Part shown: positions 5,143-43,499 of the stretch, in pieces
How the letters are laid out: each line of letters opens with the position of its first letter
How positions within the stretch are numbered: position 1 is the stretch's first letter
Source: Gaiellaceae bacterium
GTDB taxonomy: Bacteria; Actinomycetota; Thermoleophilia; Gaiellales; Gaiellaceae
Length of the DNA stretch: 46,464 nt
Assembly: GCA_035643535.1 (NCBI GenBank)
Contig: DASQQF010000147.1
Location: 1 to 46,464, forward strand
Direction of reading: 5' to 3'
The notes under the pieces: generated by a model
The model's input: the letters and a program-made list of their open reading frames with translations, nothing else
Told to the model about the DNA's origin: nothing
Databases searched by the model: none
Position numbers and translations under genes: made by a program

Positions 5143-5195
5143 CGTCGGTATTCGACCGCGCGGCGCCCAGGGCGGTTGCGTCCTATGCTCCGGCG

Positions 5196-5654
5196 ATGGC
5201 CGGCGAGTCCGATGAGGGCGAGTCGGGAGAGGACGTCTTCGCGGAGCTGCCGGAGATCGGGGACGGGATCCGGGGCAAGCGCCTCGTGCGCGAGGAGGGC
5301 CGGCCGCTCGCGGCCGCGGTGTGGGAGCTGCCGCCGGGCTCGAGCGGCGTTCCGTACCACTTCCACCACGGCACGGAGGAGTATCTGATCGTGCTCCGGG
5401 GGACGGCGACGCTGCGCACGCCGCAAGGCGAGCGCGAGCTGTCGGCGGGGTCGGTCGCACACTTCTCCCCCGGCCGCGAGGGGGCGCACACCGTCATGAA
5501 CCGCGGTGACGAGCCCGTGCGCTACGTGATGGTCGGCGCGCACACCTCGCCGGACATCGTCGAGTACCTCGACGAGGGCACGTTCGCCGCGGTGGCGAAG
5601 ACGCTCTCGCAGCGCGGCGAGCCGTTCTTCGTCCGGCAGGAGCTGCCGGACTAG
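5196..5654 (+). CDS. Cupin domain protein
   Basis: 152 aa with PYHFHHGTEEYLIVLRGTATL and GSVAHFSPGREGAHTVMN (cupin motifs 1 and 2). Confidence 0.7.
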   Translation: MAGESDEGESGEDVFAELPEIGDGIRGKRLVREEGRPLAAAVWELPPGSSGVPYHFHHGTEEYLIVLRGTATLRTPQGERELSAGSVAHFSPGREGAHTVMNRGDEPVRYVMVGAHTSPDIVEYLDEGTFAAVAKTLSQRGEPFFVRQELPD

Positions 5655-6288: not shown

Positions 6289-6480
6289 CTAGAGCGCCTT
6301 CTGGACCTTGCCGGCCTTGAGGCAGCGCGTGCAGACGTACGCCCGCGTCGGCTTGCCGCCGAGGAGGACGCGGACGCGCTGGAGGTTCGGGTCGAAGCGC
6401 CGCTTGGTCGCCACCATCGAGTGGCTGCGGTGGTGGCCGAAACCGGGCTTCTTGCCGCAGATCGCGCAGACCTTGGACAT
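6289..6480 (-). CDS. rpmB: 50S ribosomal protein L28
   Basis: 63 aa: [38 protein letters not shown].... ATG at 6480. The rest of track ORF 6289..7104 is upstream read-through. Confidence 0.95.
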
Positions 6481-6510
6481 CGGCGCCGCACGATAGCCGA
6501 ACGGAAGCCC

Positions 6511-6556
6511 CCGCCGTGCCGTCGGCACGCCGACGGCAAGCCGACGGCAGGTTACG
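6511..6556 (-). repeat. Copy A of a 46-nt conserved intergenic element (three 11-nt phased units, hairpin-forming), 30 nt upstream of rpmB
   Basis: 42/46 identity to 25608..25653 in the same orientation. Minus-strand reading: CGTAACCTGCCGTCGGCTTGCCGTCGGCGTGCCGACGGCACGGCGG. Confidence 0.7.
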
Positions 6557-6601
6557 AGTGTGAGACGCGAGAAGGCCGGTCCGCGCCCAGCGCCGACGGG
6601 C

Positions 6602-7327
6602 TCAGCCCGCCACCTTCGCCTGCTCGCGGAGGCCCGCGAAGAGGTCGGCCATCTCGAGCGCGGCGCGAGCCGCCTCGGCACCCTTCCCGGTCCGGGCCCG
6701 CGCCTGCTCGAGCGTGTCGGCGGTGAGCACGCCGAAGGCGACCGGGACTCCCGTCTCGAGCGCTGCAAGCTGGATCCCGGAGGCAGCCTCGCCCGCGACG
6801 TAGTCGAAATGCGGCGTCTCGCCGCGGATGACGCAGCCGAGGGCGACGACGCAGGCGTAGCGGCGCGTCTTCGCGAGCGCCATCGCGCCCAGCGGCAGCT
6901 CGAACGCCCCCGGCACCGGTACGACGGTCGTCCGCTCGGGTGAGACCCCGGCACCGGCGAGGGCGGAGAGCGCAGACTGGAGCAGCGCGTTCGTGATCTC
7001 CCCGTTGAAGCGCGACACGACCACGCCGACGGAGCGGCCCGCGCCCGAAGGACCGCCCTCGAGGACGGCGACGCCGTCGGGGACCTCGAGCTCGTCCGGC
7101 GCATGCTCGCGTGCCGCGACAGGCTCGGGCTTCTCGCGCTCGGCTTCCGCCGGCGCGGCCTCGTCCGCCTCGTCGCGCGCGGGTTCGTCCGCCTCGGCAG
7201 GCTCCGGTCCGGCAGGTTCCGCGTCCGGCTCCACCGCCCGCACCGGGGCCTCCTTCGGTTCCTCCTCGTCGCCGTCTTCCTCGTCGACCACGGGCTGCTC
7301 GCCCGGCCAAAAGCCTCCGTCGCTCAC
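6602..7327 (-). CDS. ribH: 6,7-dimethyl-8-ribityllumazine synthase with a long acidic N-terminal extension
   Basis: The core [16 protein letters not shown]...VPGAFELP...[14 protein letters not shown] is canonical RibH. It is preceded by about 85 aa rich in E/P/A/D. GTG at 7327 overlaps the ribBA stop (GTGA). An alternative GTG at 7243 is preceded by AAGGAGG. Confidence 0.9.
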
Positions 7328-8568
7328 GCGTCCTCCACCTCGACTGGTTGCGAACCGAACTTCAAATCCTGGTGGTGCAGCTTGTGCCCGAGCTTATCCC
7401 GCTTGGCGGCCAGATAGCGAGCGTTCTCGGGCCGCGGCGCCACCTCGATCGGCACCTGTTCGACGACCTCGAGCCCCCACGCCTGCAGACCCGAGACCTT
7501 CTTCGGGTTGTTGGTCAGAAGCCGGATCGTCGTGACACCGAGGTCGGCGAGGATCTGGTTGCCGATGCCCCACTCGCGCTCGTCGGCGGCGAAGCCGAGC
7601 GCGAGGTTCGCGTCGACCGTGTCGAGTCCCTGCTCCTGGAGCTCGTATGCCCTGAGCTTGTTGAGAAGGCCGATGCCGCGCCCTTCCTGTGCCATGTAGA
7701 GGAGGACGCCGCGGCCCTCGCCCGCGATCGCGGCGAGCGCAGCATCGAGCTGCTCGCCGCAGTCGCAGCGGAGCGAGTCGAAGACGTCGCCGGTGAGGCA
7801 TTCCGAGTGGACGCGAACGAGCATGTCGTCACCGACCTCGCCCAGCACGAGCGCGAGATGCTGCCGTCCGGTCAGCGCCTCGCGGAAGGCGCTTGCCGCG
7901 AACGTCCCGTGGGGGGTCGGCAGCTGGACGGTGACGACCCGCTCGACGAGCTTCTCGGTCCTGCGGCGGTACTCGATCAGGTCGGCGACGGTGATCAGCC
8001 GCAGCCCGTGGCGCTCGCAGTACGGGACGAGGTCGGGGATCCGGGCCATCGTCCCGTCCTCGTTCATGATCTCGCACACGACGCCGGCCGGGATCAGCCC
8101 GGCGAGTCGGGCGAGGTCGACGGCGGCCTCGGTCTGGCCGGCCCGCACGAGAACCCCGCCGTCGCGGGCGCGCAGCGGGAAGACGTGCCCGGGCTGGACG
8201 AGGTCGCGCGGCGTCGACGCCGGGTCGATCGCGACCTGGATCGTGCGCGAGCGGTCGGCGGCCGAGATCCCCGTCGTGACGCCCTCCCGCGCCTCGATCG
8301 AGACGGTGAAGGCCGTGCCGAGGCGCGCCTCGTTCCTCGGCGTCATCGGCGGCAGGCCGAGCTGGTCGCAGCGCTCCTCGGTCAGGCAGAGGCAGACGAG
8401 CCCGCGCGCATGCGTGGCCATGAAGTTGATCGCTTCGGGTGTGGCGAACTGCGCCGCGACCACGAGGTCGCCCTCGTTCTCCCGGTCGGGATCGTCGACG
8501 ACGACGACCATCTTCCCGTTGCGGATGTCGTCGAGCGCCTCCTCGACGCCGGCGAACGGGCCGTTCAC
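7324..8568 (-). CDS. ribBA: Bifunctional 3,4-dihydroxy-2-butanone-4-phosphate synthase / GTP cyclohydrolase II
   Basis: GTG at 8568 overlaps the ribE stop. The 414-aa product has DRENEGDLV (DHBP synthase part) and [21 protein letters not shown] (GTP cyclohydrolase II zinc site). Confidence 0.95.
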
Positions 8569-9152
8569 GACGCGATCCTCGCCCTGACGAGCCGCTCGAC
8601 GATCTTGCCGAGCACGTCCGCCTCGAGGTTGACCGCGTCGCCGGTCTCGAGCCGGCCGAGGGTGGTGACCTCGAGCGTGTGCGGGATCAGGGCGACCGCG
8701 AACCCGTCGCCGTCGAGGCCGGCGATCGTGAGCGAGACGCCGTCGACCGCGATCGAGCCCTTCTCGACGCACGTGCGGAGGAGGTCCTCTGGTGCGTCGA
8801 CCCAGACCCGCCGGCCGAACTCCTCGTCCACGGCGCTGCGGACGCGGCCGACCGCGTCGACGTGCCCCTGGACGACGTGGCCGCCGAGCGGTTCCCCCAT
8901 GCGGAGCGCGGGCTCGAGGTTCACGCGGTCGCCCGCGCGGAGCGCGCCGAGGGTCGAGCGGGAGAGCGTCTCGGAAACGACGTCGAAGGCGACGCGCCCG
9001 TCGCCTGCTGCGACGACTGTGAGGCAGACGCCCGCGAGCGCGACCGAGTCGCCGGGGGCCGCCTCGGCCGCCGCCCGCGGTGCCTCGACGACGAGGCGGC
9101 CGTCCTCGGAGGCGGCCACGGTCGCGAGCTCGCGCACGATGCCGGTGAACAT
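8565..9152 (-). CDS. ribE: Riboflavin synthase alpha chain
   Basis: 195 aa starting MFTGIV, with the internal duplicated barrel pattern ([13 protein letters not shown] / [11 protein letters not shown]). Confidence 0.9.
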
Positions 9153-9161
9153 GCTCGAAGA

Positions 9162-10106
9162 CTACGGCTCCCGGAGATATGCCTCGACGAGCACGTCTTC
9201 GCCGAAGGGCTCGCTGCGGAGGTGGAGGAGCTCGAGCGGCTCGGCGAGGTCGCCGAGGAAGCGCGGCCCGGCGCCGGCGAGCGCCGGTGCGACGAAGAGG
9301 AGCAGCTTGTCGACGAGCCCGGCTGCCAGGAAGGCCGTCGCGAGGGTCGGCCCGCCCTCGAGCAGGAGCGACCGGACGCCCTCCGAGGCGAGCGTCCCCA
9401 GCTCCTGTTCGAGCGGGCCGCTGCGAAGCTCGAGCTCCGACCCCTCCGGCAGCGGGCCGCGACCGAAGGCGAGGCGGCGCGGCTGGCGTTCCGCCCCGAC
9501 CTCCCGCGCGTCGAGGCGCGGCGCGTCGGCGCGGACGGTGCCCATCCCCACCGCGACGGCATCGGAGCCGGCACGCAGCTCGTGGACGAGCCGCCGCGAC
9601 TCCTCGCCCGAGACCCAGCGGCGGCCGGGGACTGCGACCCTGCCGTCGAGGGTCACCGCCGCCTTGTACGTCACGAACGGACGGCCGAGCGCCTTCCACG
9701 TCCGCCACGCCTCGTTCTGCCGGCGTGCGGCCAGGTCGTCGAGCAGCGAGACCTCGACACCCGCCGTCCGCAGCCGCTCGAGGCCGCGGCCGTCGACGAG
9801 CGGGTTCGGATCGCGCGCGCCGACGACGACGCGGGCCACCCCGGCCTCGACGACGGCGTCGGCGCACGGCGGCGTGCGGCCGTGGTGCGAGCACGGCTCG
9901 AGCGTCACGTAGAGCGTCGCGCCCCACGCCCGCTCCCCGGCCTGCTCGAGCGCCGCCACCTCGGCGTGGCGTACGAGGTCGTACTCGTACCACCCCTCCC
10001 CCACGACCTCGCCGTCGCGGACGACGACCGCACCGACGAGCGGATGGTCGCCGACCTTGCCGCGGCCCCGCTCGGCCAGCTCGAGCGCCCGCTGGAAGGC
10101 GCTCAT
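9162..10106 (-). CDS. ribD: Bifunctional diaminohydroxyphosphoribosylaminopyrimidine deaminase / 5-amino-6-(5-phosphoribosylamino)uracil reductase
   Basis: ATG at 10106 overlaps the rpe stop (ATGA). It has the HAEVAAL...TLEPCSHHGRTPPC deaminase zinc motif followed by a reductase domain. Confidence 0.9.
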   Translation of the reverse strand: MSAFQRALELAERGRGKVGDHPLVGAVVVRDGEVVGEGWYEYDLVRHAEVAALEQAGERAWGATLYVTLEPCSHHGRTPPCADAVVEAGVARVVVGARDPNPLVDGRGLERLRTAGVEVSLLDDLAARRQNEAWRTWKALGRPFVTYKAAVTLDGRVAVPGRRWVSGEESRRLVHELRAGSDAVAVGMGTVRADAPRLDAREVGAERQPRRLAFGRGPLPEGSELELRSGPLEQELGTLASEGVRSLLLEGGPTLATAFLAAGLVDKLLLFVAPALAGAGPRFLGDLAEPLELLHLRSEPFGEDVLVEAYLREP

Positions 10107-13704: not shown

Positions 13705-13727
13705 GGACCGGAGGGTACCCTCGCACC

Positions 13728-14752: not shown

Positions 14753-14774
14753 CTGCGCTCGACGCGCAGCGCCT

Positions 14775-16703: not shown

Positions 16704-16740
16704 CGGGCGAGCGTAGCCCGGGGTATGGTCGGCGCCGGCG

Positions 16741-20353: not shown

Positions 20354-20380
20354 GCGAGCCCCGATGCGGCGGGGGCTCGC
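20354..20380 (-). terminator. Putative intrinsic terminator hairpin downstream of the ZIP transporter gene
   Basis: GCGAGCCCC-9 nt loop-GGGGCTCGC, starting about 40 nt after the ZIP stop codon. No clear U-tract, which is often missing in high-GC actinobacteria. Confidence 0.35.
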
Positions 20381-20418
20381 GACAGGGTGGCGGCGGCGGG
20401 TGAGCCAGCGCGGCCGGA

Positions 20419-24234: not shown

Positions 24235-25587
24235 TCAGGAGCGTTTCACAAAGTCGATCGAGACCGGGACCCCCTCGAGGCCGAACCGCCCACGCAGCTC
24301 GTTCTCGACCCAGTAGCCGTAGTCGCGCGTCACGAGCCCGGGGTCGTTGACGAAGAGGCGGAAGCGCGGCGGACGCACACGGGTCTGCGCGCCGTAGAGG
24401 AGGTTGAGCTTCCGGCCGCGCGGGCCGCTCGGCGGCTGGCGGGCCTCGCGGAGCTCGGCGAGCGCCCGGTTCAGCTCCGGGGTCGCGACGCGCGCGGTGT
24501 GCCGGTCGAACAGCGCCTCGACACCGTCGAGCAGCCGCTCCAGACCCCGTCCGGTGTGGGCGGAGACGGCGACGAACGGGGGCCGCTGGCGCAGGCGCCG
24601 CCGCAGCTCGCCGCGGACGTCCTCGACGCGGATCGCCGTGATGTCCCACTTCGAGAGGACGACGAGCGTCGAGCAGTCCGCCTTGCGCGCGACGTCCGCG
24701 ACGGCGATGTCCTGCTCGACGATCCCTTCCGACGAGTCGATGAGGACGAGCGCGACGTCTGCCCGCTCGGCCGCCTCGAGCGCGCGCAGCTCGGCGTAGT
24801 ACTCGATCCCCTGCCGGTGCCGACGCTTGCGGCGCAGCCCGGCGGTGTCGACGAGGACGAGCGTCCGGTCGCCGCGCTCGAGCACGGTGTCGACGGAGTC
24901 GCGGGTCGTGCCGGGAACCTCGCTCACGAGCACCCGCTCGCGGCCGAGGAGCGCGTTGACGAGGCTCGACTTGCCGACGTTCGGGCGGCCGAGGATCGCC
25001 ACGCGGATCGCTTCCGCGGGCAGCTCCGGTCGCTCGGCCGGCGCGAGCCGCTCGAGCTCCGCGACGACCGCGTCGAGCAGGTCGCCGGTGCCGCTGCCGT
25101 GGAGGCCCGAGACCGGGATCGGCTCGCCGAGGCCGAGCCGGTGGAGCTCGAGCGCGAGCGTCTCCTGGGATGGGTCGTCGATCTTGTTCGCGAGGACGAG
25201 CACCGGCTTCCGCGACTTGCGGAGGATCTCGGCGACCTCTTCGTCGCCCGGCGTGACGCCCGCCCGCGCGTCCGCGAGGAAGAGCACGAGGTCGGCCTCC
25301 TCGACCGCCTCCTGCGCCCGCGCCGCGATCGCCCTGGTCAGCGGCGCCGGATCGGCGAGATCGACGCCGCCGGTGTCGACGAGCAGGAAGCGCTTGCCGC
25401 CCCACTCGCAGACGAGCTCCTTCGAGTCGCGCGTCACCCCGGGCGTCTCGTGGACGACGGCGGCACGTGTCTCGGTGAGGCGGTTCACGAGGGTCGACTT
25501 GCCGACGTTCGGAAAGCCGACGATCGCCACGCGCCCGAGCAGCGGCGCCGGCGGTGTCTCGTCGAGTTGCTCGACGTCGTCACTCAT
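24235..25587 (-). CDS. der: Ribosome biogenesis GTPase Der (EngA)
   Basis: 450 aa from ATG 25587, with two tandem GTPase domains (GFPNVGKST...DTGG...NKID and GRPNVGKSS...DTAG...SKWD) plus a KH-like C-terminus. Confidence 0.95.
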   Translation of the reverse strand: MSDDVEQLDETPPAPLLGRVAIVGFPNVGKSTLVNRLTETRAAVVHETPGVTRDSKELVCEWGGKRFLLVDTGGVDLADPAPLTRAIAARAQEAVEEADLVLFLADARAGVTPGDEEVAEILRKSRKPVLVLANKIDDPSQETLALELHRLGLGEPIPVSGLHGSGTGDLLDAVVAELERLAPAERPELPAEAIRVAILGRPNVGKSSLVNALLGRERVLVSEVPGTTRDSVDTVLERGDRTLVLVDTAGLRRKRRHRQGIEYYAELRALEAAERADVALVLIDSSEGIVEQDIAVADVARKADCSTLVVLSKWDITAIRVEDVRGELRRRLRQRPPFVAVSAHTGRGLERLLDGVEALFDRHTARVATPELNRALAELREARQPPSGPRGRKLNLLYGAQTRVRPPRFRLFVNDPGLVTRDYGYWVENELRGRFGLEGVPVSIDFVKRS

Positions 25588-25607
25588 CGCGGCGCGAAGC
25601 CTAGAGA

Positions 25608-25653
25608 CCGCCGTGCCGCCGGCAAGCCGACGGCGAGCCGACGGCACGTTACG
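25608..25653 (-). repeat. Copy B of the 46-nt conserved intergenic element, 20 nt upstream of der; its distal end contains the plsC stop codon
   Basis: 42/46 identity to 6511..6556. Minus-strand reading: CGTAACGTGCCGTCGGCTCGCCGTCGGCTTGCCGGCGGCACGGCGG. Confidence 0.7.
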
Positions 25654-26329
25654 GGAGCGTGACGGGCGCCGCGTCGCCGCGGGACGGCGGCACGGCGACA
25701 CGAGGCCGGCCTGCCTCGTGGAGGTCTCGGAGCCACGCCCAGAGGCGGTGCAGCTCCTCCTCGATCTGCTGCGACGCCTCGCGGTAGCCCTTCGCACCCC
25801 TGGCCACCCCGTGGAAGCGCATGGGCTCGCCCCAGGCGATGGAAACGGGCGCGAAGTTGCCGAGCCGCCAGTGCTGCGAACCGTGAATCGCCGCGCACAC
25901 GACCGGAACGTCCTCCTGCAGCGCCGCCATCGCCGCCCCCGGCTGCACCCTTCCGGGGACCCCCGCGCGCTGGCGCGTCCCCTCCGCGAACACGCCGAGC
26001 ACGTTCCCGTCGCGCACGACCTCGCGCATCCGCCGCACCGCCTCGCGATCGGACTCGCCGCGGCGCACCGAGAAGGTGCCGAAGCCGCGGATGAGCTGCC
26101 CGAGACCGGGCGCGCGGTGCGCCTCGATCTTGGCGAGGAAGTAGATGTTCCGCGGCGACTGGTAGCCGAAGCAGGGGATGTCGATCCACGAGAAATGGTT
26201 GAAGGCGAGCACGATCCCGCCGGTCTGCGGGACGCGCTCCACGCCGTACGAGCGGAGCCGCGTCGCGAGCGCGGTCGGGATTCCCAGCAGCGGCCGACCG
26301 GCGGCCCAGACGGCGTCGACCCTGTTCAA
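25649..26329 (-). CDS. plsC: 1-acyl-sn-glycerol-3-phosphate acyltransferase family protein
   Basis: 226 aa with the NHFSWIDI (HX4D) and FAEGTR motifs. The apparent TTG start overlaps the cmk stop (TTGA). Confidence 0.8.
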   Translation of the reverse strand: MNRVDAVWAAGRPLLGIPTALATRLRSYGVERVPQTGGIVLAFNHFSWIDIPCFGYQSPRNIYFLAKIEAHRAPGLGQLIRGFGTFSVRRGESDREAVRRMREVVRDGNVLGVFAEGTRQRAGVPGRVQPGAAMAALQEDVPVVCAAIHGSQHWRLGNFAPVSIAWGEPMRFHGVARGAKGYREASQQIEEELHRLWAWLRDLHEAGRPRVAVPPSRGDAAPVTLP

Positions 26330-27004: not shown

Positions 27005-28282
27005 TCACCGTCTCGTCACCGACTCCAGCAGGTCGTAGAAGCCGGGGAAGCTTATAGCCGCCGTGTCGGCCCCCTCGATCGCCACGCCCTCCCGTGAGGC
27101 GAGTCCGGCCACGGCGCCGAGCATGGCGATGCGGTGGTCGCCACGCGCGTCGAGGCGCCCCCCGCGCAGTCGGGCGGGGACGCCGGTGATCGTCCAGCCG
27201 TCCTCCTGCGAGTGGATCCGCGCCCCGAGAGAGCGCAGGCCGTCCGTCACGGCCTCGATCCGGTCGCTCTCCTTGACCCGCAGCTCGCCGGCGCCGCGGA
27301 CGCGCGTCTCCCCTCGCGCGTGGGAGGCGAGGAGCGCGACGAGCGGCAGCTCGTCCACGAGCGCGGGCACCTCCTCCGCGCGCACCTCGGTCGCCACGAG
27401 CTCGCCCGGCTGGACCTGGACGGAGGCGACGGGCTCGCCGCCCGCGCGGCGCCGCTCGAAGACCGAGACGCGCGCGCCCATCCTCTCGAGCACCTCGAGA
27501 AGACGCGTGCGGCGCGGGTTCACGCCGAGGTCGTGCACCGTGACGTCGCTGCCCGGGACGAGGGCGGCGGCGGCGAGCAGCGGCGCGGCCGACGAGAAGT
27601 CGCCGGGAACGGCGATCTCGCCGAGCCGCAGCGCGCCGGCCGGCTCGACGGTCACCGAGGAGGGCCGGCGCCGCACCCGCGCTCCCGCCGCCTCGAGCAT
27701 CAGCTCGGTGTGGTCCCGCGTCGGCACCCGCTCGACGACGGTCGTCGGGCCGTCGGCGTTGAGGCCGGCGAGGAGGATTGCGGACTTCACCTGTGCGCTC
27801 GCCACCTCGGGCTCGAGCTCGACACCGCGCAGCGAGCCCGACCCGCGGACGGTGAGCGGCGCGTGCCCCTCGGTCGTCTCTACATCCGCCCCCATCCGCC
27901 GCAGCGGCGCGGCGACCCGCTCCATCGGACGCGCCGAGAGCGACTGGTCGCCGGTGAGCGTGAACTCGGCCTCCTGGCCTGCACAGATCCCGGCGAGCAG
28001 GCGCATGAGCGTCCCCGCGTTGCCGCAGTCGACCGTCCCCGCCCGCAGCCCGCGCAGCCCGACGCCGTGGACGACGAGCTCGTCGTCCGCGACGTCCTCC
28101 ACCTCCACCCCGAGCGTCCGCACCGCCTCGACCGTGGCGAGCGTGTCGCCCGAGCGGCCGAAGCCGCGGATCCGCGCCTCTCCCTCGCCGAGCGCGCCGA
28201 GCAGCACGGCGCGGTGCGAGATCGACTTGTCCCCGGGGACGACGACGTGCCCGACGAGCGCCGCCGCGGGCTCCACACGCAT
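27005..28282 (-). CDS. aroA: 3-phosphoshikimate 1-carboxyvinyltransferase (EPSP synthase)
   Basis: 425 aa from ATG 28282: PGDKSISHRAVLL, DCGNAGTLMRLL, LRVKESDRI, DHRIAM. Confidence 0.9.
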   Translation of the reverse strand: MRVEPAAALVGHVVVPGDKSISHRAVLLGALGEGEARIRGFGRSGDTLATVEAVRTLGVEVEDVADDELVVHGVGLRGLRAGTVDCGNAGTLMRLLAGICAGQEAEFTLTGDQSLSARPMERVAAPLRRMGADVETTEGHAPLTVRGSGSLRGVELEPEVASAQVKSAILLAGLNADGPTTVVERVPTRDHTELMLEAAGARVRRRPSSVTVEPAGALRLGEIAVPGDFSSAAPLLAAAALVPGSDVTVHDLGVNPRRTRLLEVLERMGARVSVFERRRAGGEPVASVQVQPGELVATEVRAEEVPALVDELPLVALLASHARGETRVRGAGELRVKESDRIEAVTDGLRSLGARIHSQEDGWTITGVPARLRGGRLDARGDHRIAMLGAVAGLASREGVAIEGADTAAISFPGFYDLLESVTRR

Positions 28283-30546: not shown

Positions 30547-31656
30547 ATGAAGAAGCTGTCAGCTCTCGCCGCGCTCGCGGCCGCGGGCATCGCGGCGCTC
30601 GTCACCGTGCAGATCGCGGGCGCGACCGGCGGACACAGGCACGACGAGCATCACGGCCAGAACGTCCGCCACATCTTCGTGATCATGCTCGAGAACCACT
30701 CGCAGCAGAGCGTGATCGGCGACCAGTACGCGCCGTACATCACCTCGCTGGCACAGAAGTACGCGAGCGCTTCCGACTACTACGGCGTCACGCACCCGAG
30801 CGAGCCGAACTACGTCGCGCTGTTCTCCGGCTCGAACTGGTGGATCAACAACGACAGCCCGGACAACCGGTACGACCACGTCAACCTGGTCGACGAGCTC
30901 GAGGCGGCTCACAAGACGTGGGGCGCGTACATGGAGGCGATGCCGGCCGACGACAAGACGGTCGACTACTGGCCGAGCTCGGGCAACGCCCTCTACGCGT
31001 CGAAGCACAACCCGTTCGTCCTGTTCGACGACGTCCGGAACAACCCGGCGCGGATGGAGAACGTGAAGCCGTACACCTCCTTCGCGAGTGACCTCTCGAA
31101 GGAGCGCACGACACCGGACTTCTCCTTCATCGTCCCGGACCAGTGCAACGACATGCACGGCGGCGTCTACACCGCGGTGCCGGGCCACCCCGAGACGCCG
31201 TGCCCGTACAACTCGACGAACGACGATCCTGCCGACATCGAGCTGAAGCAGAACGCCGATGCGTTCGTGAAGAAGACGGTGCAGACGATCATGGCCAGCC
31301 CGTCGTGGCACGAGGGGCAGGACGCCATCTTCGTCGTGTCGGACGAGGGCGACTACACCGGTAACACCCAGACAGGCGGGTGGGCATCCCCCGCCGGTTG
31401 TTGCGACTCGCCGGTGGTCCCCGCGGGCGCTCCGGACATCAGCGCGTCCTGGCCCGGCGGCGTCTACGGCGGCGGGCTCGTCCCGGCGGTCGTGGTCGTC
31501 AACCGCGGCGGCAAGACCGGCGGCTACGTCAGCGACACGCCGTACAACCACTACTCGCTCCTCGCGACGATCGAGGACGTCTGGAACCTGCCGAAGCTCG
31601 CCTATACGGCGGACACCGCGCAGGTCGAGCCGATGACGGAGTTCTTCACGAAGTAG
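30547..31656 (+). CDS. Secreted phosphoesterase-family protein (acid phosphatase / non-haemolytic phospholipase C family)
   Basis: 369 aa with a signal peptide MKKLSALAALAAAGIAALVTVQIAGA and a His-rich segment GGHRHDEHHG. It also has IFVIMLENHS, THPSEPNY and QCNDMHG motifs. A GGGGGAGG Shine-Dalgarno sequence lies upstream. Confidence 0.75.
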   Translation: MKKLSALAALAAAGIAALVTVQIAGATGGHRHDEHHGQNVRHIFVIMLENHSQQSVIGDQYAPYITSLAQKYASASDYYGVTHPSEPNYVALFSGSNWWINNDSPDNRYDHVNLVDELEAAHKTWGAYMEAMPADDKTVDYWPSSGNALYASKHNPFVLFDDVRNNPARMENVKPYTSFASDLSKERTTPDFSFIVPDQCNDMHGGVYTAVPGHPETPCPYNSTNDDPADIELKQNADAFVKKTVQTIMASPSWHEGQDAIFVVSDEGDYTGNTQTGGWASPAGCCDSPVVPAGAPDISASWPGGVYGGGLVPAVVVVNRGGKTGGYVSDTPYNHYSLLATIEDVWNLPKLAYTADTAQVEPMTEFFTK

Positions 31657-31669
31657 GCAAGGCAAGTCG

Positions 31670-31706
31670 CCGGCCCCGCTCCGCCGTCCCGCGGCGGCGG
31701 GGCCGG
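31670..31706 (+). terminator. Putative intrinsic terminator between the two phosphoesterase genes
   Basis: CCGGCCCCGC ... GCGGGGCCGG 10-bp stem with an inner CCGC/GCGG extension, starting 14 nt after the stop. No U-tract. Confidence 0.4.
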
Positions 31707-31751: not shown

Positions 31752-34049
31752 ATGAAGAGAGGCACCGCAGCGACACTACTCGCAGCCGCAGCACTCGCCG
31801 CGCTCGTCGCCGTGCAGGTGGCGGGCGCCACCCGCTCTCGGGGCGCGAAGCCGGCCTCCAAGGCGGCGTCGTGCAGGCTCGGGAACGGGATCGAGCACGT
31901 GATCAACATCGTCTTCGACAACGTCCACTTCTCGCGGGACAACCCGAACGTCCCGTCCGACCTCGAGCAGATGCCGCACCTGCTCGACTTCCTGAAGCAG
32001 TACGGCACGGTGTTCTCGAACTCGCACACGCCGCTGATCGCCCACACGGCCGATGACAGCCTCACGATCTACACGGGCCTGTACGGCGACCGGCACGGGC
32101 AGCCGCTCACGAACTCGTACAAGGTGTACAACCCGGACGGCTCGACCGATCCGGCTGCCTCCTTCGCGTACTGGACGTCGCCGGTCGTCGACACGACGAC
32201 CAACCCGCCGAAGGCGAGCACCGTCGACAGCGCTCCGACGATGGCGTACGGCGGCGGCGGCGTCACACCGGCGCCGTGGGTGCCGTTCACGCGCGCCGGC
32301 TGCTCGGTGGGCGACTTCTCGAGCGCGAACATGGTGCTCGAGAACGCGGGCGTCGACATCCCGACGGTGTTCGGCCCGAACTCGCCCGAGGCGAACCAGA
32401 CCGCTGCCGACCCGAACCCGTACAAGGACGCGGAGGTCGCCCAGTACATCGGCGAGGCGATCCACTGCGCGAAGGGCGCGGCCATCTGCGCCGGCTCGTC
32501 GCGTCCGGTCGCCGACGCACTACCGAGCGAGCCGGGCGGCTACCACGGCTACCAGGCGCTCTTCGGCGCCAAGTACATCGCCCCCGCGATCGGCGGCGGC
32601 CCGAACCAGTTCCACGACGGCTACCGGGTCACCGACGCGAACGGGAACCTCGTCGACCTGAACGGCAACACCCTCGGCGAGCCGTACGGCGGCGGGCCCG
32701 GCTTCACGGGCTTCAACCCGACGGCGACGCAGACGCTCGCCGTGCTCGCGGACATGCAGGAGGCAGGGATCCCGGTCACGTACGGCTACATCTCGGACCT
32801 GCACGAGCGCAAGTCCGACACGACGACCGGGTGCACGTCCGACACGTCGTCGAAGGGCGTCGGCAGGCCGCTCGGCCCGGGCGACGCGTGCTACGTCGCG
32901 AACGCACGGCACTACGACCAGGCGTTCCAGACGTTCTTCGAGCGGCTCCAGGCCGACGGGATCACGCCGGCGAACACGCTGTTCGTGATCAGCGCGGAGG
33001 AGGGCGATCAGTTCGCGGGCGCGAACGTCGGCCGGGCGACCCAGCCCACGCCGGCCGGCTGTGACGGCGTCACCACGCCGTGCAACTACGCCCCGGGCCA
33101 GATCGGGGAGCTCCAGGCGAACATCAAGGGCCTCCTCTCCGGCACGGCGAGCGCGGGCACGCAGTTCGACATCGAGCCGCAGGGCGCGTCGATCTACGTG
33201 CACGGCAACCCGCCGGCGAACGACCCCACGGTCCGCCAGCTCGAGCGTGACACGGCGGCGATGACCAACCCCCACGACCCGTACTCCGGCGTCGACAACG
33301 AGAAGATCGTCCGCTACCAGGCGGGCGCGCTCGAAGAGCGGGTGCTGCACATGCAGACGATCGACCCGCTGCGCCTGCCGACGTACACGATGTTCCCGAA
33401 GCCCGACTACTACTTCTCGACGTCGGGCCCGAACGTCGGCATCAACGACTACTACGCCTACGACCACGGCTACTACAGCCCGAACATCGACGTGACCTGG
33501 GTCGGCGTCGCAGGCAAGGGCGTGGCTGTCCGAGGGGTCGACGGGCCCGACCCGGCGCACGGGAACCAGCCGAGCGACCCCGAGTCGACGAACACGGTCC
33601 CGCAGGCGAGCACGGTCGGCACGTGGGTCGAGGAGACCGACATCCGGCCGACCATGCTCTACCTGCTCGGCCTGCGCGACGACTACCAGTCCGACGGCCA
33701 CGTGATCACGCAGGCGCTCGCGTCGGCGCCGCGGGCGCTCGCCGCGACCGAGCAGCTCGCCGCCGGCTACGACCAGATCGAGTCGAGCGTCGGGCAGTTC
33801 GGAACGGACACGCTCATCGCCGACACGCGGGCGCTCGCATCGGGCTCCGGCTCGAACGACCGCGTCTACAGGAGAGAGCAGGCGAAGCTGCGTGCCCTGG
33901 CGAACGACCGGGACAGGGCGGCCGCCAGGATCGAGAAGGTGCTCTCGGCCGCCGCGGCCGGGAGGATGCCGAGCCACGGCGAGGTGCGGAGCGGGCTCTC
34001 ACTGGTGCGGGAGCTCCTGCGACGGGCCGACCGGCTCGCCGCGTCGTAG
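31752..34049 (+). CDS. Large secreted alkaline-phosphatase-superfamily (phosphoesterase-like) protein of unknown specificity
   Basis: ATG at 31752 is preceded by GGAGGAGG. The 765-aa product has a signal peptide MKRGTAATLLAAAALAALVAVQVAGA. Its N-terminal block VINIVFDNVHF...HTPLIAHTADDSLTIYTGLYGDRHG aligns by eye with the ENHS...THPSEPNY block of the upstream paralog and with NPP-type TGLYPxxHG. The C-terminal tail is helical. Confidence 0.55.
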   Translation: MKRGTAATLLAAAALAALVAVQVAGATRSRGAKPASKAASCRLGNGIEHVINIVFDNVHFSRDNPNVPSDLEQMPHLLDFLKQYGTVFSNSHTPLIAHTADDSLTIYTGLYGDRHGQPLTNSYKVYNPDGSTDPAASFAYWTSPVVDTTTNPPKASTVDSAPTMAYGGGGVTPAPWVPFTRAGCSVGDFSSANMVLENAGVDIPTVFGPNSPEANQTAADPNPYKDAEVAQYIGEAIHCAKGAAICAGSSRPVADALPSEPGGYHGYQALFGAKYIAPAIGGGPNQFHDGYRVTDANGNLVDLNGNTLGEPYGGGPGFTGFNPTATQTLAVLADMQEAGIPVTYGYISDLHERKSDTTTGCTSDTSSKGVGRPLGPGDACYVANARHYDQAFQTFFERLQADGITPANTLFVISAEEGDQFAGANVGRATQPTPAGCDGVTTPCNYAPGQIGELQANIKGLLSGTASAGTQFDIEPQGASIYVHGNPPANDPTVRQLERDTAAMTNPHDPYSGVDNEKIVRYQAGALEERVLHMQTIDPLRLPTYTMFPKPDYYFSTSGPNVGINDYYAYDHGYYSPNIDVTWVGVAGKGVAVRGVDGPDPAHGNQPSDPESTNTVPQASTVGTWVEETDIRPTMLYLLGLRDDYQSDGHVITQALASAPRALAATEQLAAGYDQIESSVGQFGTDTLIADTRALASGSGSNDRVYRREQAKLRALANDRDRAAARIEKVLSAAAAGRMPSHGEVRSGLSLVRELLRRADRLAAS

Positions 34050-35033: not shown

Positions 35034-35073
35034 ACCCTCGCGAACTCCTGCGGAGTCCGCTCGGCCGATGAGG

Positions 35074-35108
35074 CGCTCCGCGCGGGCGAGACGCGGAGCG
35101 TCTCGCCC
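35074..35108. terminator. Overlapping alternative 9-bp hairpins between convergent genes (putative bidirectional terminator)
   Basis: CGCTCCGCG/CGCGGAGCG and GGGCGAGAC/GTCTCGCCC stems share the central segment. They lie between the GYD gene stop (35033) and the scpB stop (35113). Confidence 0.4.
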
Positions 35109-35112
35109 GAAT

Positions 35113-42532: not shown

Positions 42533-42577
42533 GCGACGAACGCTACGGCACCGCTCCGGCGCATCGACCGAGCCCCT

Positions 42578-42889
42578 TCAGGCCGACGGGAAGCCCCGGC
42601 TCGTCCACTCGCGCGCCAGGACGGCGTAGACGAGTTCGCTCTGCCACTCGCCTTGACCCACTCGTTCTCGACGAAACGGGCCTCGAGACGCATCCCGAGC
42701 CTCTGGAGCACTGGATCGAAGCCGCGTTGCGAGCCTCCGTCCGGCCGATGACGCGGTGGAGGCCGGCCGACGCGAACGCCCAGTCGACCAGTGCGCGGGC
42801 GGCCTCGGTCGCAAAGCCCTTCCCTGGTGACGCGGGCCGAAGACGAAGCCGATCTCGGCAGTCCTGTCACCGGGCCGACGACCCCGGGC
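42578..42889 (-). pseudogene. N-terminally truncated, triple-frameshifted remnant of a RimJ/RimL-type GNAT acetyltransferase
   Basis: GNAT-like segments lie in three minus-strand frames. Joined, they read TAEIGFVFGPRHQG/KGFATEAARALVDWAFASAGLHRVIGRTEARNAASIQ/VLQRLGMRLEARFVENEWVK/GEWQSELVYAVLAREW. Each junction is explained by loss of one G in a G-run (near 42823, 42711 and 42651). Sequence for the N-terminal roughly 70 aa is absent. Confidence 0.6.
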
Positions 42890-42891
42890 CC

Positions 42892-43323
42892 TCACTTCTC
42901 TCCGGCAGCGCGAAGCGCCGCCTCGAGGCGGTCGAGCTTGCCGTCGAGCGAGTCGAGGCGGCTCTCGATGCGCTGCAGCTCCGACAGCTCCTCGCCCGTC
43001 TCCCTCGCCGCACGCTCGGCGATCACCCGGGTGACGAAGGTGGACGTTATCGCCGCCGTGACGATCGCCAGGAATGCGATGCCCTCGAACATGACGAACG
43101 CCGCCACGAGCCGGCCGCCCACGTGCTTCGGCGTCACGTCGCCGTAGCCGACGGTCGTCACGGTCTGGAGCGCCCACCACATGCCTTTCCAGACGCTCGG
43201 ATACTCCGAGCGGTCGACCACCCGCATGAGCACGCCGCCCACCACGACGACGAAGGCGGTGGCAGCGACGATCGTCCTCGCGGCGAGCCGCGCGGACGGC
43301 GGCTCCTGGAGAACTCGGGCCAT
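42892..43323 (-). CDS. Two-TM potassium channel (KcsA-like) with a C-terminal coiled-coil tail
   Basis: TVGYGD selectivity filter flanked by two hydrophobic helices. The C-terminus reads ELSELQRIESRLDSLDGKLDRLEAAL. ATG at 43323 is preferred; an upstream in-frame GTG at 43413 is possible. Confidence 0.8.
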   Translation of the reverse strand: MARVLQEPPSARLAARTIVAATAFVVVVGGVLMRVVDRSEYPSVWKGMWWALQTVTTVGYGDVTPKHVGGRLVAAFVMFEGIAFLAIVTAAITSTFVTRVIAERAARETGEELSELQRIESRLDSLDGKLDRLEAALRAAGEK

Positions 43324-43499
43324 GCGCCGCTCGATCGGGGTCAGCCGCACTCCCCGTCGCACGTTACGGACGCGACCGGATGCTCGGACCTCGCGGAGCG
43401 CCGAGAGGACCACGGCTCCTCAAGTCTCGAGCGGCCTCAGTTCCATTCGACCCGTTCGCGCCAGACGGTCTTCCTGACCGGTCCACGTAGGATCCGCGC

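Follow-up and report, generated by a model that had tools for sequence, protein, structure and literature searches.

We analysed a stretch of 46,464 nucleotides (nt) from the metagenome-assembled genome of an uncultured soil actinobacterium of the family Gaiellaceae (class Thermoleophilia; contig DASQQF010000147.1, assembly GCA_035643535.1), hereafter the window, and within it a 46-nt element that occurs twice—once between ribH, for lumazine synthase, and rpmB, for ribosomal protein L28, and once between plsC, for an acyltransferase, and der, for a double GTPase. A gene map drawn from codon usage and Pfam scans places 52 genes in the window, mostly joined by 4-nt overlaps; spacers longer than 50 nt number only about ten. 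Copy 1 is placed in the 121-nt ribH-rpmB spacer, and copy 2 takes up most of the plsC-der spacer. Both copies are non-coding and identically oriented, both form a hairpin between the stop codon of one gene and the promoter of the next, and relatives lack the element at both junctions.

Aligned without gaps, the copies agree at 42 of 46 positions, exactly as a preliminary reading made from the letters alone (the sequence-only reading) had quoted them. In a self-BLAST of the window the pair is the top non-trivial match (91.3% over 46 nt, E 2.8e-11) and the strongest non-coding repeat; the second-best match, between the two GTPase domains of der, is an internal duplication that was to be expected. 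At the G+C content of the window (72.8%), short G+C-rich matches arise often. The likeness of the pair nevertheless lies far beyond chance, as the sequence-only reading had argued: a search tolerating up to three mismatches returned the query alone, and shuffled sequences are expected to give no such match. Its statement that the window holds no third copy was likewise borne out by an nhmmer profile of both copies. The weaker similarity that it had described past the 46-mer is real but short, since the best local alignment extends, ungapped, to 57 nt in all (6511-6567 against 25608-25664), and past that alignment the flanks resemble each other no more than shuffled sequence does (a score at least equal to that of the real pair is reached by 431 of 500 shuffles).

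Read on the sense (minus) strand, the consensus of the two copies is 5'-CGTAAC-[C/G]TGCCGTCGGC-T[T/C]-GCCGTCGGC-[G/T]T-GCCG[A/G]CGGCA-CGGCGG-3', the core of which consists of three tandem 9-bp palindromes, GCCGNCGGC, set at an 11-bp period (period 11 and 2.9 copies at both loci by Tandem Repeats Finder). In a single strand, units 1 and 3 pair in a G+C stem of 10-11 bp, and unit 2, being self-complementary, folds into a small hairpin of its own at the tip, flanked by a 2x2 internal loop. As RNA, copy 1 folds at -29.2 kcal/mol (z -3.77) and copy 2 at -32.6 kcal/mol (z -4.79), and in neither case were any of 200 shuffles as stable; among random 46-nt windows from this sequence, 0.5% reach -29 kcal/mol or better. 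The corresponding DNA folds have energies of -17.6 kcal/mol (z -3.3) and -18.1 kcal/mol (z -3.4) for copies 1 and 2, respectively. The Rfam scan that the sequence-only reading had suggested gave 0 matches at the gathering threshold in the window, and at permissive thresholds the best matches were to generic hairpins, scoring 17-24 bits where 46-74 would be needed. The two copies differ at four bases, namely one palindrome centre, two spacer bases, and the base beside the tag, and all 24 half-site bases are left untouched (C(22,4)/C(46,4) = 0.045, by arithmetic). All four are also compatible with the stem: one turns a U-A pair into U-G, one, at the end of the stem, replaces a C.C mismatch by a G-C pair, and the other two affect the 2x2 internal loop. 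This pattern of substitution would fit constraint on the stem and, equally, constraint on protein-binding half-sites.

The hairpin of copy 1 starts 45 nt past the ribH stop codon and ends 15 nt upstream of the rpmB -10 box, and that of copy 2 starts 0 nt past the plsC stop codon and ends 4 nt upstream of the der -10 box. Directly downstream of each copy lies a hexamer of the form TANNNT, TATCGT at 9 nt before the rpmB ATG and TAGGCT at 10 nt before the der ATG; these hexamers, and the distances of 30 nt from copy 1 to the rpmB ATG (A at 6480) and 20 nt from copy 2 to the der ATG (A at 25587), had been given correctly from the letters. Such hexamers are a general feature of the window: in 20 of its 52 genes one ends 4-12 nt (mostly 6 nt) ahead of the start codon, as against 0.45% of random positions (for example within 5143-5195, 13705-13727, 16704-16740 and 43351-43499). 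Shine-Dalgarno-like motifs are few in the window, and the genome appears to rely largely on mRNAs that are leaderless or have very short leaders. At both loci a scan for the sigma-70 consensus found nothing and a scan for U-tract terminators found 0 terminator-like sites; the organism uses TANNNT-only promoters. The coordinates of the features at the two loci are collected in Table 1.

Table 1. Features of the two element-bearing gene junctions, in window coordinates; a dot marks features listed without strand.
Feature	Position	Strand	Details
Element, copy 1	6511..6556	-	Sense strand CGTAAC-CTGCCGTCGGC-TT-GCCGTCGGC-GT-GCCGACGGCA-CGGCGG
Element, copy 2	25608..25653	-	Sense strand CGTAAC-GTGCCGTCGGC-TC-GCCGTCGGC-TT-GCCGGCGGCA-CGGCGG
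Three GCCGNCGGC palindromes, copy 1	6518..6548 (6518-6526, 6529-6537, 6540-6548)	.	Tandem Repeats Finder, 90% matches; motif search
Three GCCGNCGGC palindromes, copy 2	25615..25645 (25615-25623, 25626-25634, 25637-25645)	.	Tandem Repeats Finder, 85% matches; motif search
GTAAC tag, copy 1	6551..6555	-	Directly 5' of the hairpin; same pentamer precedes an unrelated 11-mer array in relative L111
GTAAC tag, copy 2	25648..25652	-	TAA (25649-25651) is the plsC stop codon
11-nt extension of weak similarity, copy 1	6557..6567	-	CGTCTCACACT; part of the ungapped 57-nt local alignment
11-nt extension, counterpart at copy 2	25654..25664	-	CGTCACGCTCC; native 3' coding end of plsC (..PVTLP)
Insert of about 95 nt holding copy 1	6506..6601	-	Lies between the ribH stop and the rpmB promoter stretch GTTCGGCTAYCNT, which is conserved; missing in relatives (L041-L048)
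rpmB -10-like hexamer TATCGT	6490..6495	-	TATCCT or TACCAT in relatives without the element
rpmB, ribosomal protein L28, 63 amino acids	6289..6480	-	Downstream of copy 1; Pfam Ribosomal_L28
ribH, lumazine synthase	6602..7327	-	Upstream of copy 1; last gene of the def-fmt-rsmB-rpe-ribD-ribE-ribBA-ribH string
plsC-der spacer, about 61-64 nt	25588..25651	-	Holds copy 2 and the der -10 box; a 4-nt overlap (GTGA) instead in L108, L110 and L112
der -10-like hexamer TAGGCT	25598..25603	-	TACGCT then TCG in L109 and L111; in L109, 9 nt before the der ATG
der/engA, double GTPase, 450 amino acids	24235..25587	-	Downstream of copy 2
plsC-type acyltransferase	25649..26329	-	Upstream of copy 2 (cmk-plsC)

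Comparison with relatives places both copies among derived changes to these junctions. An L28 identical (100%) to that of the window is encoded by ten contigs, two of which are same-strain contigs and carry the element. The other eight (L041-L048) represent at least three further lineages and have no element upstream of rpmB; the distance from the ribH stop to the rpmB ATG is only 26 nt in five of them (L043-L046 and L048) and 40 nt in another (L047), and in the remaining two (L041 and L042) a PASTA-domain gene intervenes between ribH and rpmB. All eight keep the stretch GGCTAYCNT followed by 9 nt and the ATG. Because these element-free relatives retain the promoter stretch, the rpmB promoter is ancestral, and the roughly 95 nt that include copy 1 are an insertion in this lineage.

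PlsC of the window has 226 amino acids and ends in ..VTLP*, most relatives have 227, and the C-terminus ..APVTLP[G/A/S/R] is conserved among 120 homologues. The sources of PlsC homologues name them Gaiellaceae or Actinobacteria metagenome-assembled genomes, and the closest non-self PlsC is no more than 86% identical. In three relatives (L108, L110 and L112) plsC and der overlap by 4 nt (..CCG GGG TGA / GTG AGC..) and there is no spacer at all. Two others (L109 and L111) represent a more distant lineage, with Der 81% identical to that of the window as against 85-87% for L110 and L112. These do have a spacer, in which GGTAAC (in L111) or GTCAC (in L109) comes after the plsC stop and precedes an array of two 11-mers, GGGGTCTGRCCC-RGGTCTGGCCCC, that is unrelated to the one in the window and folds no better than shuffled sequence. 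In addition, about 77 nt, among them the last nine plsC codons, are tandemly duplicated as a block, intact in L111 (1361-1505) and degraded in L109 (2567-2700). These comparisons mark the plsC-der junction as an indel hot spot, at which GTAAC beside an 11-nt-periodic array recurs and the sequence found in the window does not.

Both junctions are thus in a derived state, and the copies themselves are derived insertions because relatives lack the element at both loci, having ribH-rpmB spacers of 26-40 nt and a 4-nt plsC/der overlap in its place. The sequence-only reading had proposed a functional element specific to rpmB and der as ribosome-related genes, and had named absence from orthologous positions in relatives as the observation that would speak against it. 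That is what the relatives display, and for this reason the gene-specific reading is not upheld. What survives of the proposal is an element that is non-coding, beyond chance, set in one orientation upstream of real promoter-like -10 hexamers, and significantly structured; the part that falls is a gene-specific function shared by the two genes. The pairing of rpmB with der is itself weak evidence because 7 of the 52 genes of the window are translation-related, which makes two translation-related neighbours a weak coincidence (roughly 0.02). On these comparisons, the element is not a conserved regulator of rpmB and der or of ribosomal genes.

Within the strain, both copies are unchanged in contigs from two independent samples (JGI 3300039724 and ENA ERZ27259812; 99.6-99.9% identity), which, by arithmetic from the record ranges, either fall inside the window or extend about 47 nt beyond its start. 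Same-strain contigs differ by indels within genes, the ENA contig (L040) being without 43 nt of a cupin gene (5551-5593) and the JGI contig (L049) without 119 nt of aroA (EPSP synthase; 27585-27703), with the result that its gene call is split; these indels could be real polymorphisms or assembly errors.

The reading that we favour, with confidence about evenly balanced against doubt, is that the element is a lineage-specific tagged hairpin, resembling repetitive extragenic palindromes (REPs), that was copied to two gene junctions and probably serves there as an I-shaped terminator or RNA-end hairpin insulating the downstream promoter. It reads as terminator-like because it is placed where this genome puts such hairpins, after a stop codon and before the next promoter. 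Unique G+C hairpins of comparable strength and without a U-tract follow the ends of other transcription units of the window, with energies of -37.8 kcal/mol after 31656 (31657-31700), about -30 kcal/mol on both strands in 35034-35112, and -23 kcal/mol after a ZIP gene. Such hairpins, strong and G+C-rich, stand directly after stop codons at 31657-31700, 35034-35112, 20380-20418 and 14753-14774, each with a sequence of its own, and these are candidates for I-shaped terminators in their own right. For the two junctions, we envisage that the unit of GTAAC tag, three GCCGNCGGC palindromes and CGGCGG was copied either from one locus to the other or to both from a common source, and that the copies landed in this Gaiellaceae genome at two junctions where the genes had once stood close together. 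The similarity that extends for 11 nt into native plsC coding sequence hints at the der locus as the donor, although this is weak evidence. Read-through transcripts from the rib string and from cmk-plsC would then meet a hairpin acting as an I-shaped terminator without a U-tract, as a barrier to 3'-end decay, or as both. In consequence, rpmB and der would be expressed mainly from their own promoters and not via read-through, and der would in addition lose its translational coupling to plsC, in contrast to the co-transcription and coupling envisaged for relatives. Termination and insulation, like the way in which the copy was made, are what we infer from this arrangement.

Comparison with described systems both supports and delimits this reading. 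In high-GC Actinobacteria, I-shaped hairpin terminators without a U-tail are described within 50 bp of stop codons, although their ability to terminate in vitro is disputed (PMC12288462), and the element likewise is a stable G+C hairpin with no U-tail no more than 50 nt past a stop, of the type that follows other transcription units of the window; the likeness is one of structure. It differs from ordinary terminators, which are unique in sequence, in that the two copies are 91% identical and carry a common tag. The tail after the hairpin, CACGGCGGGGGCUUCC or CACGGCGGUCUCUAGG, is not a U-tract, and the element is not a canonical intrinsic terminator.

REPs, among them the GTAG/CGTC-tagged families and SMAG repeats, have an unpaired tag beside a stem of 6-13 bp, long self-complementary loops in some families, and tolerated G-U pairs; they are found mostly downstream of open reading frames (ORFs), between genes that are unidirectional or convergent, and the tag may supply the stop codon of the ORF (Di Nocera et al. 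2013, PMC3733652). The element, too, is a short G+C-rich imperfect palindrome with one unpaired end tag, its stem of 10-11 bp falls within the described range, its loop is self-complementary, and its stem accommodates G-U. Both copies lie between co-directional genes, 0 and 45 nt past the upstream stop, the tag of the der copy provides the stop codon of plsC, and the role proposed for REPs as RNA hairpins in termination and mRNA stabilisation is the one we propose here. In contrast, the tag reads GTAA(C), and an A in the fourth position lies outside the described variants (GTAG, GYAG, GYRG, GTRG, GTMG, GTGG or CGTC; PMC3733652); a CGTC is present 13 nt further 5' in both copies but is not adjacent to the stem. 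The element is also longer (46 nt as against the usual 20-40 nt) and is composed of three 11-nt tandem units, with no inverted dimers and no RAYT seen. The word "Actinobacteria" does not occur in the text of Di Nocera et al. (PMC3733652), and membership of the element among the tagged REPs is not established.

Mycobacterial interspersed repetitive units (MIRUs) offer a further comparison, as they are described as inserting at the start codons of -4 overlap junctions (PMC12548453). The element shares with them an actinobacterial host, a size on the scale of about 46-100 nt, a single orientation relative to transcription, and a position inside operon spacers, and the der copy interrupts a -4 overlap junction. 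It departs from them in having a single 46-nt unit per locus and no head-to-tail array, only an internal 11-nt periodicity, and in lacking a consistent coupled mini-ORF, since the frame differs between the copies. To our knowledge, hairpin architecture is not a MIRU trait. The element is thus neither a canonical intrinsic terminator, a MIRU nor a member of an Rfam family, nor is it a conserved rpmB/der operator; by analogy, its mode of action is probably that of a REP or of an I-shaped terminator hairpin, and it would belong with short dispersed intergenic hairpin repeats and terminator-like hairpins.

Several points weigh against the favoured reading. Only two copies are known, both in 46 kb of genome, in comparison with the tens to hundreds of copies of REP families. 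The three-palindrome pattern was found in no other Gaiellaceae among the 185,579 species genomes and the JGI metagenome set that were scanned, and a search for ORFs passing through further copies, made with six-frame peptides of both copies against 5.8 billion proteins, returned nothing at E<=10, a search that is insensitive for segments of 15-17 amino acids. No RAYT or other transposase domain was found by Pfam in 40 window proteins and in the same-strain loci tables that cover most of the other genes. The tag is GTAA and not GTAG or CGTC, a U-tract is lacking, and opinions differ on whether a hairpin that lacks one makes actinobacterial RNA polymerase terminate (Czyz 2014 versus Ahmad 2020, both as cited in PMC12288462). 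A hairpin at the plsC-der site is not demonstrably conserved, because the arrays of L109 and L111 fold no better than shuffles. Finally, the spared half-sites fit protein binding equally well.

Searches for further copies extended well beyond the window. The pattern GCCGNCGGC-NN-GCCGNCGGC-NN-GCCGNCGGC gave 38 loci, all unrelated, in the species genomes (one per species; the source genome is not in the set) and 57 loci, none of them the element, in JGI metagenome contigs (the source samples are not in the set); the matches are mostly perfect 11-nt tandem repeats from other taxa. The closest approach to the whole element in the metagenome contigs (35/46; L051, L071 and L103) was set aside as a chance match, lying, as judged by eye from ORF translations, in an apparent coding region of an unrelated high-GC contig. 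The nhmmer profile of the two copies found no third copy in any of the loci retrieved, and BLAST against plasmids gave short chance matches only. A scan of viral contigs with the tag and first unit gave one match, likewise ascribed to chance, which falls within a long ORF on an IMG/VR contig whose G+C is visibly lower. Within the window, a possible third relic, the 11-mer CCGTAACGTGC (the tag and start of the der copy) at about 43361-43371 on the minus strand, was rejected as not significant, 115 of 1000 shuffles scoring as well; this recurrence stands just upstream of the GTG start of an ion-channel gene (42892-43350), with TAACGT placed like a -10 box. Longer homology between the rpmB insert and the 3' region of plsC was likewise not significant.

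The strongest alternative, which we regard as possible but rather unlikely, accepts the origin just described and denies the function. It holds that the element is a neutral selfish or accidental repeat—an insertion of the REP type or of a miniature inverted-repeat transposable element, or a small piece of the plsC-der spacer carried into the ribH-rpmB spacer by ectopic duplication or gene conversion—and that it is tolerated since each downstream gene has a promoter of its own. Its restriction to one lineage at both loci agrees with this, as does the lack of any related copy elsewhere in the scans made. The repeat of the rpmB copy, moreover, runs 11 nt into native plsC coding sequence of the der locus (CGTC.C.C.C.CGTAAC), and the plsC-der junction is a hot spot for indels and duplications in relatives, as illustrated by the tandem duplication of about 77 nt in L111. 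Against neutrality, the substitutions avoid stem and half-site positions, which suggests constraint, a weak argument with four differences. The copies are also identical across same-strain contigs from the two independent samples, and so strong a hairpin, transcribed as part of a spacer, would probably affect RNA 3' ends.

An operator array appears improbable, and more so than neutrality. Under this explanation, the three GCCGNCGGC palindromes would bind a dimeric or OmpR/PhoB-type protein over the -35 or upstream region and so co-regulate two genes that both concern the 50S subunit. OmpR/PhoB-type regulators bind arrays of 11-bp direct-repeat units, as in Streptomyces PHO boxes, and the element resembles such arrays in its three units, in its 11-bp period (one helical turn, seen in both copies), and in its place immediately upstream of or over the promoter -35 region. 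The copies end 15 and 4 nt upstream of their -10 boxes, an 11-nt difference that would set them on the same helical face, and the four differences spare the 24 half-site bases (p about 0.045). With two copies, however, such phasing arises by chance about one time in four, stem pairing accounts for the spared half-sites equally well, and, with 7 of 52 window genes translation-related, the pairing of the two genes argues little. The units, unlike those of a PHO box, are internal palindromes, and the array is not conserved upstream of orthologues: it is missing in relatives with identical L28 and a conserved rpmB -10 box, and at der relatives have either no spacer or unrelated sequence. We know of no regulator with an array motif of GCCGNCGGC units.

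Very unlikely, finally, is that the element is a promoter with a structured leader, the tag TAAC(G/C)T acting as -10 box and the hairpin as a 5' leader that controls translation of rpmB and der, or a MIRU-like short ORF that couples translation across the junction: TAACGT and TAACCT do fit TANNNT, which is rare in this genome, the der copy does have a GTG that stands 1 nt past the plsC stop and shares its frame with the der ATG, a second frame of that copy does end in a TGA overlapping the ATG (ATGA), and its insertion at a -4 overlap junction is where MIRUs are described to insert, but the proximal -10 boxes are the conserved ones, the tag reads TAACGG in L111 and GTCAC in L109 (neither of them TANNNT), no Rfam leader matches, the copies stand in different frames relative to the downstream ATG (30 versus 20 nt), and the rpmB copy has CTG for GTG and no ATGA overlap ahead of an L28 whose N-terminus, MSKVC, is conserved. 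For the same reasons of frame and conserved N-terminus (MSKVC), a coding reading of the element as an N-terminal extension of Der or L28 was rejected.

Other features of the window were noted in passing. The rib genes lie within a def-fmt-(109 amino acids)-rsmB-rpe-rib string (6602-10106), mostly with 4-nt overlaps, and no FMN riboswitch stands ahead of ribD-ribE-ribBA-ribH, no Rfam family reaching its gathering score in the whole 46 kb. RibH itself begins (7034-7327) with an acidic, Pro/Ala/Glu-rich extension of about 98 amino acids before the DMRL synthase domain (residues 99-229 of 241); its relatives have 223-292 amino acids, and the extension is thus variable in them but retained. The self-BLAST also returned an 81% match over 54 nt between 30574-30627 and 31779-31832 (E 1.7e-5), at the 5' ends of adjacent plus-strand genes for a phosphoesterase-family protein and a 745-amino-acid protein without a Pfam match, and this probably reflects similar signal-peptide coding. 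Two spacers are long for so compact a genome, 20072-20418 (347 nt) and 42533-42891 (359 nt), and neither has a called gene or an Rfam match.

Known in two copies, not conserved, and lacking a known partner protein, the element is at present a modest lineage-specific feature. A broader reading, which we offer as a doubtful extension of the favoured one, is that it is the first member to be recognised of a family of GTAAC-tagged, REP-like mobile hairpins in Thermoleophilia (Gaiellaceae), whose 11-nt-periodic stems would be peculiar to each lineage (GCCGNCGGCNN here, GGGTCTGGCCC in L109 and L111) and which would split coupled gene pairs such as plsC/der and ribH-rpmB by setting a terminator-like hairpin beside a leaderless promoter; a variant, in which a lineage-specific regulator uses the palindrome array as its operator and so coordinates L28 with Der in 50S biogenesis, is less likely. 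If the hairpin truly terminates or insulates, the two junctions would record a rewiring of operons in which a short copied hairpin separated two genes, one for a ribosomal protein and one for a GTPase of ribosome assembly, from the metabolic genes upstream of them, seen in one lineage of an uncultured and poorly studied class, and they would add one more case to the debate over U-tract-less terminators in high-GC Actinobacteria. If these are two of many copies, they would establish a REP-like family in a phylum from which descriptions of such families are scarce.

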